A stretch of DNA of 32,000 bases from Candidatus Iainarchaeum sp. (GTDB lineage Archaea; Iainarchaeota; Iainarchaeia; Iainarchaeales; 0-14-0-20-30-16): contig JAQTTP010000001.1 in assembly GCA_028710695.1 (NCBI GenBank), positions 150,001 through 182,000 on the forward strand, given 5' to 3'. The notes below the pieces were generated by a model. It was not told the DNA's origin, did no database searches, and saw only the letters and a program-made list of their open reading frames with translations. Position numbers and translations under genes: made by a program. Below are positions 1 through 29,733 of the stretch, one piece after another. Position 1 is the stretch's first letter; the number at the start of each line of letters is the position of its first letter.

Positions 1-24
1 AAAACAATATAGGAGTTGAATAAA

Positions 25-270
25 ATGAATGGAACAGTAAAATTCTACAATGTAAAGAAGAGATTTGGATTCATAACTGGGGAAGACAGCAAAGATTACT
101 TTGTTCACTTGTCTGGTGTTGAAAAGGGAAATTTTTTAACAGAGAATTCAAAAGTTGAGTTTGAAGTTGAAAACGACGAAAAAGGTCCTAAGGCAGTTAA
201 TGTTAAATTAACAGAACCAAACCCACCAAGAGAAAGAAAGCCAAGAAAGACTGAAGACGAAGAAGAATAA
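25..270 (+). CDS. Cold-shock domain (CspA-like) protein with charged C-terminal tail
   Basis: ORF track 16..270. GTVKFYNVKKRFGFIT and DYFVHLSGV match the RNP1/RNP2-like CSD motifs. AGGAG at 11-15 favours ATG at 25 over TTG at 16. The tail PPRERKPRKTEDEEE extends past the CSD core. Confidence 0.85.
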   Translation: MNGTVKFYNVKKRFGFITGEDSKDYFVHLSGVEKGNFLTENSKVEFEVENDEKGPKAVNVKLTEPNPPRERKPRKTEDEEE

Positions 271-2587: not shown

Positions 2588-2678
2588 CCGTAAGTTCCCA
2601 CAAAGAAAAAGGAACAAACTATATTTTATAATGACAAAAAATTTATATTACAAAGGTTTTATTCTTATGTGATAAGGT

Positions 2679-3107
2679 ATGAATAAACAATTTAGAATCT
2701 ATAAATCTAATTCTCAAAAGAATGGAACTGCGATGTCAGTAGATATAAACAAAGAAAAGCAAAGCATTTTCTTGGAGTTTGCAAAGCAGAAACCAGATGA
2801 CACGTTTGATTGGGAAAAGAAGCTTACAATAAAATTATCTTTGAGCGAACTTGCAAAAGTTTGTGTGTTTTATAGAAATAAAACCGCAGAAGTAACGTTT
2901 TTTCATGATCCTTCTAAAGGAGAATATAAGGCCAGTTTTAAGAACGCTGTTTTGAAAGTATCACGCGGAACTAATAATTATTATTTAAAGTTAAATCAAC
3001 AGGAATTGGACGGAAACCTGAATTCAATTTTGGTTAATGTAACAGAAGAAGAAATGTATTCTTTGTGTTTGATATTTGATAGAATGATTCAAGATAGTTA
3101 TCTTTAG
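2679..3107 (+). CDS. Whirly-like single-stranded DNA-binding protein
   Basis: 142 aa. FDWEKKLTIKLSLSE, FFHDPSKGE, VLKV and VNVTEEE blocks align by eye with plant Why1 (YDWSRKQVFSLSVTE, FFHDPFKGK, VLKV, IPITRAE). AAGG precedes the ATG. Confidence 0.6.
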   Translation: MNKQFRIYKSNSQKNGTAMSVDINKEKQSIFLEFAKQKPDDTFDWEKKLTIKLSLSELAKVCVFYRNKTAEVTFFHDPSKGEYKASFKNAVLKVSRGTNNYYLKLNQQELDGNLNSILVNVTEEEMYSLCLIFDRMIQDSYL

Positions 3108-3431
3108 GTGAATAAAATGAAAAAGTTGAAAGTGCAAAAAGAGTTTATGGATTTTTTAAAAGAGTATAAAATAGTTGCTTTGGCAATTGCGTTTATTATG
3201 GGTGCTGCAGCAACTACTCTGATAAAATCTTTAGTTGACAACATAATAATGCCCATAATAACTGTGTTTATTCCAAGTGGTTCTTGGAAAACAGCAACAT
3301 ATAGTTTGGGGTCAATAGCGATTGGTTGGGGCAGCTTTTTGAGCGAGTTAATAAGTTTTTTTATAATAGCAGTTGTAGTTTTTATTGTTGTAAAAAAAGT
3401 TATGAAAGATGACAAAATCACAAAAGAATAA
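3108..3431 (+). CDS. mscL: Large-conductance mechanosensitive channel MscL
   Basis: FMDFLKEYKIVALAIAFIMGAAATTLIKSLVDNIIMPII matches the MscL N-terminus/TM1 consensus, followed by a second TM and a charged tail. The start may be ATG at 3117 rather than GTG at 3108. Confidence 0.85.
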   Translation: MNKMKKLKVQKEFMDFLKEYKIVALAIAFIMGAAATTLIKSLVDNIIMPIITVFIPSGSWKTATYSLGSIAIGWGSFLSELISFFIIAVVVFIVVKKVMKDDKITKE

Positions 3432-21464: not shown

Positions 21465-21809
21465 TTACCTAATTATTTTCTCTGTTTTTAGATTCAGAAT
21501 CCTGCAAGCATGTAAAAGATTGTAATCATCACTGTGTAAAGTGGCTTTTTTTTCTAAGGCAAGAGCAATAACCTCTATGTCTGTTTCGGAAAGTTTTAGC
21601 TTGTTCTTTTTCTTGATTTCTTTTACTTTTTTTACGCTCTCCTCAGAAGGGTCTTGGATTTTTAGTTTTCCTATAGAGATTGCATTATTTAATTTGGTTC
21701 TGAATTCGAAATCCTTTATTTCTGAGATAACGGAATTTGTAATATAAGCCTCTGTTTCTATTGGCCCGAAATTGTTTAGTATCGCAGAAGTATCAAAAAC
21801 ATTAACCAT
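21465..21809 (-). CDS. PIN-domain ribonuclease (Nob1/VapC-like)
   Basis: VFDTSAIL, VISEIKD, SETDIEVIALALE and LHSDDYNL supply the four PIN acidic positions. 114 aa, with no zinc ribbon and no adjacent antitoxin-sized ORF. Confidence 0.7.
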   Translation of the reverse strand: MVNVFDTSAILNNFGPIETEAYITNSVISEIKDFEFRTKLNNAISIGKLKIQDPSEESVKKVKEIKKKNKLKLSETDIEVIALALEKKATLHSDDYNLLHACRILNLKTEKIIR

Positions 21810-21900
21810 ATTACAAAGAAGAACGAAATAGAATATAAATTAAATACCACACATTTGCGCAAAAGAAACCTTTTTATACTGTTTGTGTGGTATTGATAAT

Positions 21901-22782
21901 ATGCAATTAGTTACTAAAGGGATTGGAAAAGGCAAAGTATATTATTTACATCATACCAGAAGGGAAGGGAAGGAGTACAAAAACTATGACCTATATCTTG
22001 GAAAAGTACTGCCTGGAGACCTAGAATTTAGAAAATATGCCTTTTTTGAAGAGGTTTATGCTGATGTATTTAAGGAAATAGTTCGGATTAAGGAAAAAAT
22101 AAAAAAAGAAGAAAAAAATATGCCGCTCTCTGTAGAAAAGAAGAACTTATTTCAATTTGGAATTAAGTTTACATATAATACAAATAGAATTGAAGGCAGC
22201 ACACTAAGCATTAAAGATACTAAAGACGCAATAGAAGATAATATCTTGCCAGATCGTAAACCAATATCAGATGTAATTGAAGCAAAAAAACACCAAGAAC
22301 TATTTTTAAAAATAATTGAATCAAAAGAAGACGTAAGTTACTCAAGCATTTTATATTGGCATAAATTTTTATTTACTGAAAGCAAGGGGGATATCGCAGG
22401 GAAAGTTAGAACTTATCCTGTGTGGATTTCAGGATCCAAATTTAACCCCCCTGGACCAAATGAGGTTGACTTTGAACTTAAGGATTTTTTTAAATGGTAT
22501 GAAAAAAATAAACAAAAACTAGATCCAATTATTTTATCGTCTTTAGTACACTTTAAATTTGTGTCTGTGCATCCTTTTGGAGACGGAAACGGAAGAATTT
22601 CAAGGCTTATGATGAATGCAGTTTTAAATAGATTTAGATATCCTTTATTTATAATAGATTACAAAAATAGACGTGGATACTATAATGCTTTGGAAAAGTC
22701 TAATGTAGAAAATAATGAACTACATTTTGTGGCTTGGTATTTGAAAAATTATTTGAAATATTTGAAGAGTGATAATAAATGA
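21901..22782 (+). CDS. Fic-domain protein (class II, internal inhibitory motif)
   Basis: HPFGDGNGRISRLMMN is the Fic active-site motif HxFx(D/E)GNGRxxR. An N-terminal TNRIEG fits the (S/T)xxxE(G/N) autoinhibitory helix. ATG 21901 is preferred over TTG 21883. Confidence 0.9.
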   Translation: MQLVTKGIGKGKVYYLHHTRREGKEYKNYDLYLGKVLPGDLEFRKYAFFEEVYADVFKEIVRIKEKIKKEEKNMPLSVEKKNLFQFGIKFTYNTNRIEGSTLSIKDTKDAIEDNILPDRKPISDVIEAKKHQELFLKIIESKEDVSYSSILYWHKFLFTESKGDIAGKVRTYPVWISGSKFNPPGPNEVDFELKDFFKWYEKNKQKLDPIILSSLVHFKFVSVHPFGDGNGRISRLMMNAVLNRFRYPLFIIDYKNRRGYYNALEKSNVENNELHFVAWYLKNYLKYLKSDNK

Positions 22783-23678
22783 TGAAAGCGGTATTATTAG
22801 GAAGTGTATCTAGCAAGCCGACTACTGAGAATTTTACTTCTTGTATGCTTGTACAGAATGAGGCAAAAGTTTACTTATTTGATGCCTGTGAAGGAGTACA
22901 GATGAGAATAATGCAATCTGGAATAAGCTTTATGAAAATAGATTCTATTTTTTTGAGCCACTTTCATGCAGACCATATTTTGGGAATTCCTGGGCTTATT
23001 GCAACAATGGAATTATCAGAAAGGCAAAGCCCATTGAATATATTTGGGCCAAAAGGAATTAAGCAAAGAGTTTCAGAGATTTTAAATTTGATGAATATTG
23101 GACACTCTTTTAAAATAAATTACAAAGATCTGAGCGAGGGGAAAGTTTTTGAGAATGAAAAAGTAGAAATTTATGCGAAAAAATTTATTCATAGAATATT
23201 GAATTATGGATTTATTATGAAAGAAAAAGACAAGGTAGGGGAATTTAATAGAAAAAAAGCAGAGAAACTTCTTCCGCCTGGGCCATTATATAAACAATTA
23301 CAAGATGGGAAAACAGTAACTTATAATGGAAAGAAAATAAAGCCGGAAATGGTAATGGATTATAACAAAGGCAGAATTGGAAAGAAGATTGGGTATATTG
23401 TTGATACTTATGATAAGGGCTATGAAAAATTTATCGGCAATGCAGATATTTTGTTTCATGAGTCTTGCTTTATGAAAGAAGAAGAAAAGAGAGCAAAGCA
23501 GACAAAGCACTCAGTAATGGAAGATGTAATAAAAATCTCAAAAAAAGCAAAAGTAAAAAAACTAGTTCTGTTTAATTATAGTAATAGGTATTTAGAAGAC
23601 TTGGAAAAAACAAAAAAGAAAATAAAGTCTAAAGATATTGTATTTGGAAACGATTTAGATTGTTTTGAACTAAAATAA
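22779..23678 (+). CDS. rnz: Ribonuclease Z-like metallo-beta-lactamase (tRNA 3' endonuclease family), divergent last motif
   Basis: LFDACEGVQMRI, SHFHADHILGIPGLI (HxHxDH), LNIFGPKG, IHRILNYGF, IVDTYD, FHESCF and KHSV follow the RNase Z motif order. The ATG overlaps the Fic stop (ATGA). Confidence 0.75.
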   Translation: MMKAVLLGSVSSKPTTENFTSCMLVQNEAKVYLFDACEGVQMRIMQSGISFMKIDSIFLSHFHADHILGIPGLIATMELSERQSPLNIFGPKGIKQRVSEILNLMNIGHSFKINYKDLSEGKVFENEKVEIYAKKFIHRILNYGFIMKEKDKVGEFNRKKAEKLLPPGPLYKQLQDGKTVTYNGKKIKPEMVMDYNKGRIGKKIGYIVDTYDKGYEKFIGNADILFHESCFMKEEEKRAKQTKHSVMEDVIKISKKAKVKKLVLFNYSNRYLEDLEKTKKKIKSKDIVFGNDLDCFELK

Positions 23679-23695: not shown

Positions 23696-24079
23696 ATGAA
23701 GGAAGTTTTGAGGAAAGCAAAAAAGACTAAAGATGAAGTTCATTTGGTGAGGCCTGTTTCTTTTAAAGAATTTAGGTCACACTTTTCAAAGAAGAAAAAA
23801 ATACATATGTCAAAATCAACTTTGTCTAGGCTGTCTGAGCAGACAAAAATCTTAATACACCAAAAAAAGATAAAAATAATAATTGAAAAAATAAGGGGAA
23901 GACCAATAGAAGCAGATCCTAAACTGTTGGCAAAAGCAATATCTTTATACAAATCTGGATTTTCTTATAGAGAAATTGAAAAGAAAATTGGAATGCCAAA
24001 AAGTAGCGTACATTATATTGTAAAAAAAGCAAAAAGAAAAAAAATAAAAACAAAGAAAGGGCATTATTCAATTGATTAA
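23696..24079 (+). CDS. Lys-rich protein with a resolvase/Hin-type C-terminal HTH and no recombinase catalytic domain
   Basis: RGRPIEADPKLLAKAISLYKSGFSYREIEKKIGMPKSSVHYIVKKA is the GRP-plus-HTH_7 layout of serine recombinase C-termini. The N-terminal 70 aa lack a resolvase core. Confidence 0.55.
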   Translation: MKEVLRKAKKTKDEVHLVRPVSFKEFRSHFSKKKKIHMSKSTLSRLSEQTKILIHQKKIKIIIEKIRGRPIEADPKLLAKAISLYKSGFSYREIEKKIGMPKSSVHYIVKKAKRKKIKTKKGHYSID

Positions 24080-24975: not shown

Positions 24976-25524
24976 CTAAATATTCTTTAGGTTCCAATTT
25001 TTTATAAATCTACTCTTTGGAATTTGGTTTTTTATTGTATTATCTAAACAAATACCCATGCCCACTATTTCGTCTCCAAATTTTATTATTTTGTAGCCAC
25101 GTTCTAGAGGCTCTTTTAGAACAAGATCTTCCCCTCTCAAATATGATAATAAGTCAGATTCTTTTATTTGGTAAAGGTTTTTTGTTGCGTGCTTTCCAAA
25201 AATTTGAATAAAATTTGTTGTTGCTTTTTTATTGTCATCAAAAGGATTACGTAAAGCTCGTAGGCCAACAGTATTTATTTTTAGGCCGGAGTTAATAAAT
25301 GCAAGTGCTTGTGTTGATTTTTTTGTGGAAATCCAAAGATCTTTTCCTCTTTTTATAAATTCATAACCTTTGAAAGCTTTGCTAGGAATTCCAAACTGAG
25401 ATTCTAGATAATTGAAAATTACTAATTCCTCTTTTTTGCTTAATAGCTGATATTCTATTTTTTCATAATTTTTGTCAGGAAAAAAGCCCCTATCTTCGCT
25501 TTGTGTGGCCATATTCTTACGCAC
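24976..25524 (-). CDS. PUA-like C-terminal half of a split RsmF/NSUN-type RNA m5C methyltransferase
   Basis: GLRALRN...YLRGEDLVLKEPLERGYKIIKFGDEIVGMGICLDNTIKNQIPKSR resembles the RsmF C-terminal PUA-like domain (LKNxYPK ending). The first ~23 codons are an out-of-frame reading of the upstream methyltransferase 3' end. Confidence 0.6.
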   Translation of the reverse strand: MRKNMATQSEDRGFFPDKNYEKIEYQLLSKKEELVIFNYLESQFGIPSKAFKGYEFIKRGKDLWISTKKSTQALAFINSGLKINTVGLRALRNPFDDNKKATTNFIQIFGKHATKNLYQIKESDLLSYLRGEDLVLKEPLERGYKIIKFGDEIVGMGICLDNTIKNQIPKSRFIKNWNLKNI

Positions 25525-26387
25525 CTCTTAATTTGTTTGTCTATTTCGAAATCCTTGTACTTTGTTAATCCATTTGATTGATTAACACCATCAAATTCAA
25601 CAGGTTTTATTTCAATATCAAATTCTTTTAATACTCTGTTTACAACCAACTCATTTTCTTCTGGAGAAATTGTACAAGTAGAATAAATAATTGTTCCTTT
25701 TGGTTTTGTTGCAGTAATTGCTGCCTTTAATAATTCATATTCCAATTTTGCAGAACCGCTGACAAAGTTTGGGCCCCATTTGTGCTTGATTTTTTCGTCT
25801 TTGAACATCGTTCCTTCTAAAGAGCAAGGGGCATCTAATAATACCTTATCAAATGCTTCAGGCATTTTTCTAAAATATCTGCCATCATTTCTTGTTATAA
25901 CTGTATTTATAATTCCTAATCTTTCTAGGTTGTCTTGTAATGCTTGAATTCTTTTTTGGTTTGGTTCGTTTGCAACAATTAGACCTTGGTTTTTCATATC
26001 CATGCCTATTTGAGTTGTTTTTGACCCTGGCGCAGCAGCAAGATCCAAAATGGACTCATCTTCCTCTGCCTCCAAAGGAATTACTGGAAGCATAGAACTT
26101 GCATCTTGGACATAAATTTTTCCTAAAAAATGTTCTAAAGTGTTTCCTAAGGACGCACCAAAAGCATTAACAAAAAAGCCGTATTTATACCATTCCATTT
26201 GTGTTAATTTAAACCCTTTGGCTTCTAATGATTCTTTAACCTCTTTAGGGCTTGCTCTAAGGGAATTTACCCTGAATGATTTTAGAGGGGGCTCAACTAA
26301 TGCCTTTTTGAAGTCATCGATTTCTTTCTCGGGAAGTATTTCTGTAACTTTTTCTAAAAACAATTTTGGTATCTCTTGTGTTTGCAT
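25455..26387 (-). CDS. NOL1/NOP2/Sun-family RNA (cytosine-C5) methyltransferase, catalytic part
   Basis: ILDLAAAPGSKTTQI (SAM motif I), LLDAPCSLEGT (motif IV Cys), IIYSTCTISPEENE (motif VI Cys), and the family-typical ending RIWPHKAKIGAFFLTKI. Confidence 0.9.
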   Translation of the reverse strand: MQTQEIPKLFLEKVTEILPEKEIDDFKKALVEPPLKSFRVNSLRASPKEVKESLEAKGFKLTQMEWYKYGFFVNAFGASLGNTLEHFLGKIYVQDASSMLPVIPLEAEEDESILDLAAAPGSKTTQIGMDMKNQGLIVANEPNQKRIQALQDNLERLGIINTVITRNDGRYFRKMPEAFDKVLLDAPCSLEGTMFKDEKIKHKWGPNFVSGSAKLEYELLKAAITATKPKGTIIYSTCTISPEENELVVNRVLKEFDIEIKPVEFDGVNQSNGLTKYKDFEIDKQIKRCVRIWPHKAKIGAFFLTKIMKK

Positions 26388-28425: not shown

Positions 28426-29733
28426 ATGGCTGGAAAGATTGAATGGTATCATGAATTTGTGAATAAAAAATATAACCCCAAACCAAATGATGTTAAAGTA
28501 CTTTTTAAATACAAACCTGCAGAAGGTATGACTAAAGAAGAAGTAATTGGAAGGGTTGCTTCTGAGAGCTCGTCAGGAACCTGGACAACACTTGCCAATA
28601 GACCAAAGCTTTTGAAGAAGGTAATGGCTTATGGTTATGATTATGATAAAGACTATGTGAAAATAGCTTATCCAAGAATTTTATTTGAAGATGGCTCTGT
28701 TCCTTGTATGATGTCTGGAATAGCAGGAAATATTTTTGGGATGAAAGCAGTAGAAGGATTGAGACTGCAAGATGCAGAGCTTCCAATGGATTATGTTAAA
28801 GGTTTTAAAGGCCCCAAATTCGGACAAACTGCAATACAAAAAATCTTTAAGAGAAAGCACGGCCCAATAACTTCTGTTGTACCTAAACCGAAAGTGGGCT
28901 ATACTTCTAAAGAGCATGCTTATTTTGTTGCAAAGCAGGTTTGGAGTGGTGGAATTGATTGTGTTAAAGATGACGAGAATTTAACAAATCAAAAGTTTAA
29001 CAAATTTGCAGATAGGGTGAAATATCTTGCAAAGGTTAGGGACCAAGTAATGAAAGATACAGGGGATATCAAAGATGCTTTCATTAACTGTACTTCTCCA
29101 ACTCTAAAAGAAATGGAAAAAAGAGTAAAAATGGTTCATGATTATGGATTTAATTATTTTATGTTGGATTTAGTAGTGGGCGGTTTTACTGCTGTTGGAA
29201 CTGCAGTGGAATTGAGCTATGACTATAAAATGGCAATACATGGACACAGAGCTATGCACGCGGCCTTTACAAAAAATCCAGATCACGGAATTTCAATGCT
29301 TTTCTTAGCAAAGCTTTACAGGCTTATGGGTGTGGATAATATTCACACAGGTACTGTTGTTGGAAAGCTTGACGGCAATGAAAAAGAGATAATGGCAATG
29401 AAAGATATGATTATGGAGCCAAAGGTTGATGAAATAAAAAACATAAGGCTGGCTCAGAAATGGGGCAAGATAAAACCATCATTACCAATATCTTCCGGGG
29501 GTTTACATCCTGGATTGATTCCTGCGGTTTTTGATGTTTATGGGACAATGAACATAGGTCTACAATTAGGTGGTGGAACACAAGGCCATCCAGATGGAAT
29601 TGAGGCAGGGTCTAGAGCAATGATGCAAGCAATAGAGGCTCACAGACAAGGAATAGAATTGAAAGATTATGCTAAGAACCACAAAGAATTAGCAAGAGCA
29701 TTAGAGAAATGGGGTGTCATGAAGCCTATTTAG
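28426..29733 (+). CDS. rbcL: Ribulose-1,5-bisphosphate carboxylase/oxygenase large subunit, form III type
   Basis: ESSSGTWTT, GNIFGMK, VPKPKVG, GGIDCVKDDENL (carbamylated Lys plus Asp/Glu metal ligands), IHGHRAMHAA, IHTGTVVGKLDG, SSGGLHPG and QLGGGTQGHP. No small-subunit gene nearby. GAGGG precedes the ATG. Confidence 0.95.
   Translation: MAGKIEWYHEFVNKKYNPKPNDVKVLFKYKPAEGMTKEEVIGRVASESSSGTWTTLANRPKLLKKVMAYGYDYDKDYVKIAYPRILFEDGSVPCMMSGIAGNIFGMKAVEGLRLQDAELPMDYVKGFKGPKFGQTAIQKIFKRKHGPITSVVPKPKVGYTSKEHAYFVAKQVWSGGIDCVKDDENLTNQKFNKFADRVKYLAKVRDQVMKDTGDIKDAFINCTSPTLKEMEKRVKMVHDYGFNYFMLDLVVGGFTAVGTAVELSYDYKMAIHGHRAMHAAFTKNPDHGISMLFLAKLYRLMGVDNIHTGTVVGKLDGNEKEIMAMKDMIMEPKVDEIKNIRLAQKWGKIKPSLPISSGGLHPGLIPAVFDVYGTMNIGLQLGGGTQGHPDGIEAGSRAMMQAIEAHRQGIELKDYAKNHKELARALEKWGVMKPI

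Follow-up and report, generated by a model that had tools for sequence, protein, structure and literature searches.

A 32,000-nt stretch of Candidatus Iainarchaeum sp. contig JAQTTP010000001.1 (positions 150,001 to 182,000; here called the window) encodes a protein of 142 amino acids (16.6 kDa, pI 8.8) that, judged by its sequence, belongs to the Whirly family (PF08536). The coding sequence lies on the forward strand at 2679..3107, with the ATG at 2679 and the TAG stop codon (3105-3107) included, exactly where a preliminary description of this DNA had placed it. That description had proposed a homologue of the plant Whirly proteins, which bind single-stranded DNA (ssDNA), encoded in an archaeal genome between a tRNA gene and mscL. 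Both flanks are as described: a tRNA-Thr(GGU) gene occupies 2486-2559 on the reverse strand, and mscL (PF01741, E = 5e-20) follows directly 3' on the forward strand (3108..3431), with a gap of 0-9 nt. A putative archaeal promoter at 2634..2649 (+) comprises an A-rich run resembling a B recognition element (BRE) and then TTTATATT (2642-2649), 30-37 nt 5' of the ATG, and was assigned from the established features of archaeal BRE/TATA promoters. The orthologues at loci L001 and L002 likewise have an AT-rich TATA-like box 5' of each gene. The Whirly gene and mscL share a strand and may be co-transcribed in the window. This pairing also occurs at L014, and other neighbours are found at L001-L003 and L018-L037; mscL is therefore context rather than a functional partner.

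The host is a DPANN-type archaeon related to Diapherotrites, and the gene is chromosomal. The AT-rich window (~32% GC) carries the archaeal superoperon of proteasome-alpha, SBDS, Rrp4, Rrp41, Rrp42 and L37ae, as well as genes for prefoldin, S19e, L31e, aIF6, FtsY and aTrm56, and a RuBisCO large-subunit homologue (28426-29733) that is probably of form III. The closest genomic loci belong to an uncultured archaeon (79% identity) and two Candidatus Diapherotrites metagenome-assembled genomes (MAGs; 49-54%). The window holds no second Whirly gene, so that 2679-3107 is its sole copy. The open reading frame (ORF) is a real gene under purifying selection, because pN lies far below pS in comparison with the L001 orthologue (0.13 vs 0.78) and dN/dS is ~0.2 against the Diapherotrites copies.

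The window protein matches PF08536 with E = 8.5e-13 and 48.8 bits, well above the gathering score of 23, and its residues 27-126 align with profile positions 30-130 of 136. The next-best Pfam family, C2_GRDP (E 0.0035, 17.9 bits), stays under its gathering score of 27, and no other family is significant. The protein has no Pfam match to PUR-alpha, none to MRP even at E <= 10, and nothing relevant in NCBIfam. A phmmer search of PDB sequences ranked p24 best (1.3e-5) and also recovered WHY1, WHY3, WHY2 and StWhy2; its only non-Whirly matches were three to a subunit of the amiloride-sensitive sodium channel (ENaC), with insignificant E values of 0.25-0.47. A family profile derived from a wider alignment of 114 sequences (A2) matches p24 over the full domain at E = 3.2e-25, and MRP1 only at 5e-3. 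Individually, 84 of the 114 aligned relatives match PF08536. Compared profile to profile with hhalign, the archaeal clade aligns with the plant/algal profile at 99.0% probability (E = 4.5e-18).

The resemblances to plant proteins that the preliminary description had picked out by eye all reappear in alignments computed with HMMER and MAFFT against p24, AtWHY1 and AtWHY3. Residues I7-Y8-K9 align with the plant SIYK, FLEFA (31-35) with LLQFA, FDWEKK-x4-LSLSE (43-57) with YDWSRK-x4-LSVTE, FFHDPSKG (74-81) with FFHDPNKG, and VNVTEEE (119-125) with IPVTKAE or IPITRAE; VLKV (91-94) is identical in the plant proteins. A census of 159 family domains underlines these positions. H76 is invariant (159/159), and E125 is found in 152 domains, with Asp in the remaining 7. 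W45 is also present in 152, Y8 in 145, D44 in 142 and K48 in 134, while residue 9 is Lys in 135 domains and Arg in 17. The core motifs of the family are thus all present in the window protein: FDWEKK (residues 43-48, 2805..2822 on the forward strand), the equivalent of plant YDW[SE][RK]K, in which D44, W45 and K48 are nearly invariant family-wide; FFHDP (74-78), within the FFHDPSKG block at 2898..2921 (+); and E125 at the start of the C-terminal helix. The core residues that it has in common with plants are Y8, K9, A18, D44, W45, K48, H76 and E125.

A two-repeat Whirly fold is predicted with high confidence. The AlphaFold2 model obtained with the 114-sequence alignment has a pLDDT of 96.3 and a pTM of 0.89, superseding a poor model (pLDDT 56.6) made with only 6 close homologues. 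Its strands and helices run β1-β4, α1, β5-β8, α2, a β4-α-β4-α topology of two four-stranded antiparallel sheets and two helices. According to DSSP on this model, the first repeat spans residues 5-67 (2691..2879, +; β1 5-9, β2 17-24, β3 29-37, β4 49-53, α1 55-67) and the second residues 71-141 (2889..3101, +; β5 71-76, β6 87-96, β7 100-109, β8 114-122, α2 123-141). The Pfam and PDB sequence alignments extend through the second repeat, and the FFHDP block lies inside the predicted fold, at the end of β5. Foldseek against the PDB returned plant Whirly chains as its top 14 matches (p24, WHY1, WHY2, StWhy2 and WHY3; entries 1l3a, 4koo, 4kop, 3n1h, 3r9y and 4koq), with E values of 3e-8 to 5e-7 and TMq of 0.68-0.78. 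MRP1 and MRP2 came next (TMq 0.67-0.74), and PUR-alpha was far behind (TMq ~0.4, E >= 1.5e-4). The profile search, the profile-profile comparison and the predicted structure with its Foldseek matches all support the proposed Whirly homology.

The place of MRP1/2 as next-best structural matches brings up a different function. The window protein could be chiefly an RNA-binding protein or RNA chaperone whose Whirly tetramer surface binds or anneals single-stranded RNA (ssRNA), as in MRP1/MRP2 and ChmC; the latter, a Whirly-fold homotetramer, prefers ssRNA (Kd 58 nM vs 184 nM for ssDNA; PMC11077065). RNA-related genes are also frequent neighbours in archaea, among them tRNA genes, a tRNA-intron endonuclease, Trm1 and an exosome superoperon 2 kb away. 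These neighbours are not kept across the clade, however, and the sequence kinship is to the DNA-binding Whirlies and not to MRP, as the family-profile E values and the lack of an MRP Pfam match indicate. Viral relatives, moreover, are encoded in DNA replication and recombination modules. We regard a primary RNA role as unlikely.

The window protein is a minimal stand-alone Whirly, outside the plant organellar subgroup. The chain consists of the domain only, with β1 starting at residue 5 and the end one residue past α2, and it has neither an organelle-targeting peptide nor a C-terminal autoregulatory Glu-Trp tail. Its loops set the archaeal clade apart in the 159-domain census. The β1-β2 hairpin K9-S-N-S-Q-K-N-G-T-A18 (2703..2732, +), aligned by MAFFT with p24, WHY1 and WHY2, is the positional counterpart of plant KGKAAL and is 5 residues longer: 8 residues separate K9 and A18 in the archaeal clade, as opposed to 3 in plants and 7 in phage-like members. 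The β2-β3 connection has 10 residues in the archaeal clade, 24-25 in plants and 38-47 in phage-like members.

Some archaeal relatives are less compact. The proteins P0009, P0011 and P0157 (L008, 6001-7050) carry low-complexity N-terminal extensions of roughly 100-200 aa that are rich in P, Q, S and T. They bring to mind plant WHIRLY1 with its polyQ and proline-rich N-termini, and also ChmC, whose tail is disordered. Such extensions, reminiscent of plant polyQ/PRAPP regions, together with the small size and mildly basic pI of the window protein, would suit an architectural protein, abundant and nucleoid-associated, or a regulator of transcription. Such a protein would bind DNA broadly and thereby compact or regulate the small chromosome, a role put forward for barley WHIRLY1 and potato PBF-2. 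Whirlies were indeed discovered as a transcription factor and have been described as nucleoid architects (PMC9070903). Compaction in plants nevertheless needs the PRAPP motif and not the Whirly domain, the window protein lacks an extension, and the patchy distribution of the family speaks against a core chromatin function. An architectural or regulatory role therefore appears improbable.

The preliminary description had also asked how the family is distributed among archaeal MAGs. An exhaustive profile search of 1.84 billion representatives outlined a small family, with 219 matches at E <= 1e-3, of which 22 reach E <= 1e-10, and in which the archaeal clade comprises ~20 clusters at 50% identity (93-163 bits). 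Its members are chromosomal and come from Diapherotrites MAGs, Micrarchaeia of the order Norongarragalinales and a Candidatus Micrarchaeota MAG; they also include proteins flanked by AspRS and FEN1. Twenty further loci come from metagenomes. Across 25 archaeal loci, synteny is kept within sub-lineages only and there is no universal partner. One sub-lineage has the order methyltransferase, tRNA-Thr, Whirly; another has tRNA-intron endonuclease, HIT and Whirly, with NAC following on the opposite strand. Among the archaeal loci, only L030 (4575-6423), on a 313 kb metagenome contig, has a neighbour from DNA metabolism. There a RecJ/Cdc45-type DHH-DHHA1 gene ends ~10 nt ahead of Whirly, with both genes on one strand; its 471-aa product has an N-terminus that possibly resembles an oligonucleotide/oligosaccharide-binding (OB) fold.

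Relatives from viral and bacterial contigs occur in quite different surroundings. IMG/VR viral contigs of 38-154 kb encode Whirly relatives, and replication modules containing a Whirly gene are found on large phage-like contigs of 109-195 kb, including a 116 kb IMG/VR contig. Several members could be placed in such replication or recombination modules, and others are seen only on short contigs. At L004, L005 and L010, on contigs of 109-160 kb, the gene forms part of a one-directional array with an AAA ATPase; ClpP is encoded upstream of it at L005 and L010, and a DnaQ-like exonuclease belongs to the L004 and L010 arrays. A group II intron reverse transcriptase with HNH lies a few kb upstream at L004 (1-978) and L010 (4522-5914). 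An RNase H gene immediately follows Whirly on the two Logan contigs (L004, 5001-6156; L005, 5001-6180), and on the IMG/VR contig L010 (8004-9139) the equivalent position is taken by an ORF that has no Pfam match. Since plant WHY1/3 physically interact with RNase H1C in chloroplasts (PMC9070903), this adjacency mirrors a known interaction and hints, by analogy, at an ancient functional pairing. At L015 (4611-6480), on a 195 kb contig labelled Acinetobacter sp. that has the appearance of a jumbo-phage genome placed in a bacterial bin, Whirly comes directly downstream of the gene for a RecA-like recombinase of 452 aa and is followed by an RNA ligase, a family-A DNA polymerase with UDG and an intein, and an N6/N4 DNA methyltransferase. 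Here Whirly occupies the usual position of an SSB (a protein that binds single-stranded DNA). The phage-like members have no PHROGs family, and tblastn with one of them found no match among 50,697 GenBank phages; the viruses that bear Whirly genes are thus known only from metagenomes.

The existence of viral-contig members, the patchy distribution and the location of the window gene between two tRNA genes could also be read as traces of a domesticated or recently acquired viral gene engaged in virus-host conflict, be it a nucleic-acid sensor, a decoy or the remnant of an element integrated beside tRNA genes. sPC4/Whirly-fold domains are in fact the proposed sensors of the Shedu and Menshen defence proteins. 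The window gene, though, stands without a nuclease or effector partner and without an integrase, its composition is not anomalous, and searches with its product matched neither PADLOC defence-system models nor PHROGs. Housekeeping genes flank all archaeal loci, and purifying selection is strong across orthologues of 49-91% identity. Of the explanations weighed here, we give a viral or defence origin the least credence.

It had further been suggested that an archaeal member would bear on the origin of the fold. It does so less than hoped. In a neighbour-joining tree of 159 domains (Kimura distances, 100 bootstraps), the clade of the window protein has 98% support and the plant core 62%, and deeper nodes do not exceed 14%. 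The point estimate of this tree joins plants with the short KGKAAL-bearing members and with the phage-like members; with 6-12% support we rejected it as evidence. Other prokaryotic or viral members stand closer to plants than the archaeal clade does. The metagenomic proteins P0094 and P0144 (145-152 aa; ENA and JGI/IMG) combine an exact KGKAAL and a plant-like insertion between β2 and β3 with the lack of a transit peptide, and short phage or bacterial members of this type score far above the archaeal clade against plant WHY1/2. The plant/algal-like sequences of the family have N-terminal extensions resembling transit peptides. We tentatively speculate that Whirly is not a plant invention, being instead an old and rare ssDNA-binding family outside the OB fold, which persists in the SSB slot of large phages beside RecA/UvsX-like, RNase H and exonuclease genes and in a chromosomal DPANN clade. 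Plant organellar Whirlies might then stem from a phage or bacterial branch in which KGKAAL and a long β2-β3 insertion were already present. The compact archaeal clade might be independent and provide an SSB that is accessory or, in some genomes, the main one. If true, the descent of plant Whirlies would resemble that of other organellar replication proteins, which have a phage ancestry.

For the window protein itself we favor a role as a tetrameric, sequence-nonspecific ssDNA-binding factor of genome maintenance, a reading by analogy with plants to which we give a probability of roughly 60%. As in plant WHY1 and WHY2, four protomers would pack their helices in a central core and form a whirligig homotetramer, whose outward β-sheets would bind ssDNA with little sequence specificity. 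Contacts would consist of hydrogen bonds to phosphates and of base stacking between the sheets of neighboring subunits, the tetramer and the ssDNA contacts being taken over from the plant mechanism (PMC3245945, PMC7549692). In the cell the protein may coat and protect ssDNA at breaks, stalled forks or R-loops and restrain illegitimate annealing, acting as an accessory SSB for genome maintenance that does not use an OB fold. Such a coating role fits because the phage relatives occur in replication and recombination contexts, one archaeal locus has a RecJ-like neighbor, and WHY1/3 interact with RNase H1C. No OB-fold SSB or RPA is encoded within the 32 kb window, which says nothing on the rest of the genome.

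Several observations weigh against this assignment. The family is rare and patchy, with ~20 archaeal clusters among the 1.84 billion representatives, and so cannot be a general DPANN SSB. No replication or repair partner is conserved across the archaeal loci, where the neighbors are housekeeping genes (tRNA genes, methyltransferase, tRNA-intron endonuclease, HIT, NAC and MscL). The Whirly-fold proteins MRP1/2, ChmC and maize WHY1 bind RNA. Plants and the other examined members of the archaeal clade have a terminal Trp, which the window protein and P0001-P0006 have lost. KGKAAL is absent as well; MAFFT aligns K9-S-N-S-Q-K-N-G-T-A-M19 with it and places N11 or G16 at the position of its second lysine. 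KGKAAL is an ssDNA-binding motif, and its second Lys (K67) is required for 24-mer assembly (PMC3245945). Without an equivalent of K67, cooperative 24-mer assembly in the manner of plants should not be assumed. As KGKAAL is missing from the Whirlies of algae and Marchantia too (PMC9070903), the motif defines a higher-plant subgroup and not the family.

Other parts of the window and of a related locus drew our attention. On the reverse strand, the 216-aa ORF listed at 1951-2601 runs through the same-strand tRNA-Thr gene, and its first ~40 residues are translated tRNA; the real start is probably at or after the Met codon at 2484, and the product has a weak, sub-threshold match to NTP_transf_5 (nucleotidyltransferase). 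A cold-shock-domain protein with a charged C-terminal tail (PF00313, E = 1e-18) is encoded at 16-270 (+); to our knowledge, such proteins are uncommon in archaea. Two ORFs with an overlap of 70 nt share between them an RsmB/F-type RNA methyltransferase (24976-26387, -): 25455-26387 encodes the N-terminal and methyltransferase domains and 24976-25524 the PUA domain. The split could be due to a frameshift or a sequencing error, or it could be a genuine split gene. A cluster at 21465-23678 encodes a PIN_6 ribonuclease, a Fic/DOC-domain protein and a tRNase Z-like metallo-β-lactamase; it is followed at 23696-24079 by a small helix-turn-helix protein with a sub-threshold match to a transposase helix-turn-helix. 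The RuBisCO large-subunit homologue at L001 (2609-4219) has a lysine-rich C-terminal tail of ~60 aa with a histone-H1-like look, which is absent from the RuBisCO of the window.

The novelty of the finding is modest, as this is an uncharacterized archaeal member of a known family whose annotation is already in databases. The exact window protein bears a precomputed PF08536 label in a public assembly, and a member of the clade from Candidatus Norongarragalina meridionalis (VVB67067.1) was deposited as "Whirly transcription factor". In one plant study, bacterial and archaeal Whirly-like sequences, not further specified, served as an outgroup (PMC11712025), and the Whirly/sPC4 fold is already recognized in prokaryotic defence proteins and in jumbo-phage ChmC. 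Searches pairing Whirly with DPANN or prokaryotes gave nothing specific, the DPANN genome papers that we checked do not mention the family, and we found no publication discussing or characterizing archaeal PF08536 members. Reviews still call Whirlies plant-specific (PMC9070903); a minimal DPANN Whirly with relatives in phage replication modules indicates that the family is broader than plants. The 142-aa protein, consisting of the domain only, offers a means to study the Whirly core in isolation from KGKAAL-driven 24-mers, a targeting peptide and an autoregulatory tail. For genome maintenance in archaea it is a further candidate factor, an ssDNA-binding protein outside the OB fold. The Whirlies in the SSB slot of phages, with their plant-like features, are a more intriguing lead than the single archaeal member.

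Compared with known systems, the window protein is closest to the plant Whirlies (StWHY1/p24 of PBF-2, AtWHY1/2/3 and StWHY2), with which it shares family, fold and 21-27% identity, as well as the motifs YK, [FY]DWxxK and [FL]FHDPxKG, the invariant His and the Glu that opens α2. Only the plant proteins have a targeting peptide or variable N-terminus and the C-terminal autoregulatory tail (Glu271/Trp272 of StWHY1); the window protein has K-S-N-S-Q-K-N-G-T-A-M in place of KGKAAL and has lost the terminal GW. The members from phage and bacterial contigs (for example P0160, P0164, P0079 and P0144; L004, L005, L010 and L015) belong to the same Pfam family, are of similar size (145-190 aa) and likewise have no targeting peptide. 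Unlike in the archaeal clade, their β2-β3 insertion is long and ends in REG, and P0094 and P0144 contain an exact KGKAAL. Against plant Whirlies they score above the archaeal clade.

Other Whirly-fold proteins are more distant. The kinetoplastid guide RNA-binding proteins MRP1/MRP2 form a tetrameric whirligig of the same type of fold, but as an RNA-binding heterotetramer whose profile similarity is marginal (E = 5e-3). ChmC of the jumbo phage PhiPA3 (gp61) is a non-plant homotetramer that binds single-stranded nucleic acid (PMC11077065); it differs from the window protein in having no detectable similarity to known proteins, β-β-β-α repeats, a disordered C-terminal tail and a preference for RNA. 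Tetrahymena TIF1 is a known distant Whirly homologue outside plants that has been implicated in replication and the S-phase checkpoint (PMC2377264) and is eukaryotic and nuclear. PUR-alpha and PC4-like domains, including DUF1508 and the N-terminal sPC4/Whirly domain of Shedu, share the broad superfold and bind single-stranded nucleic acids, with a weak structural match (TMq ~0.4). A defence system of the Shedu type 1A or Menshen NsnA kind would be expected to have its proposed sensor fused to, or in an operon with, a nuclease or effector, whereas the window protein stands alone among housekeeping genes. OB-fold SSB and RPA would do the same proposed job of coating ssDNA with an unrelated fold, and we have no evidence that Whirly replaces them. 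Archaea can employ SSBs of other folds, as ThermoDBP shows (PMC4041433).

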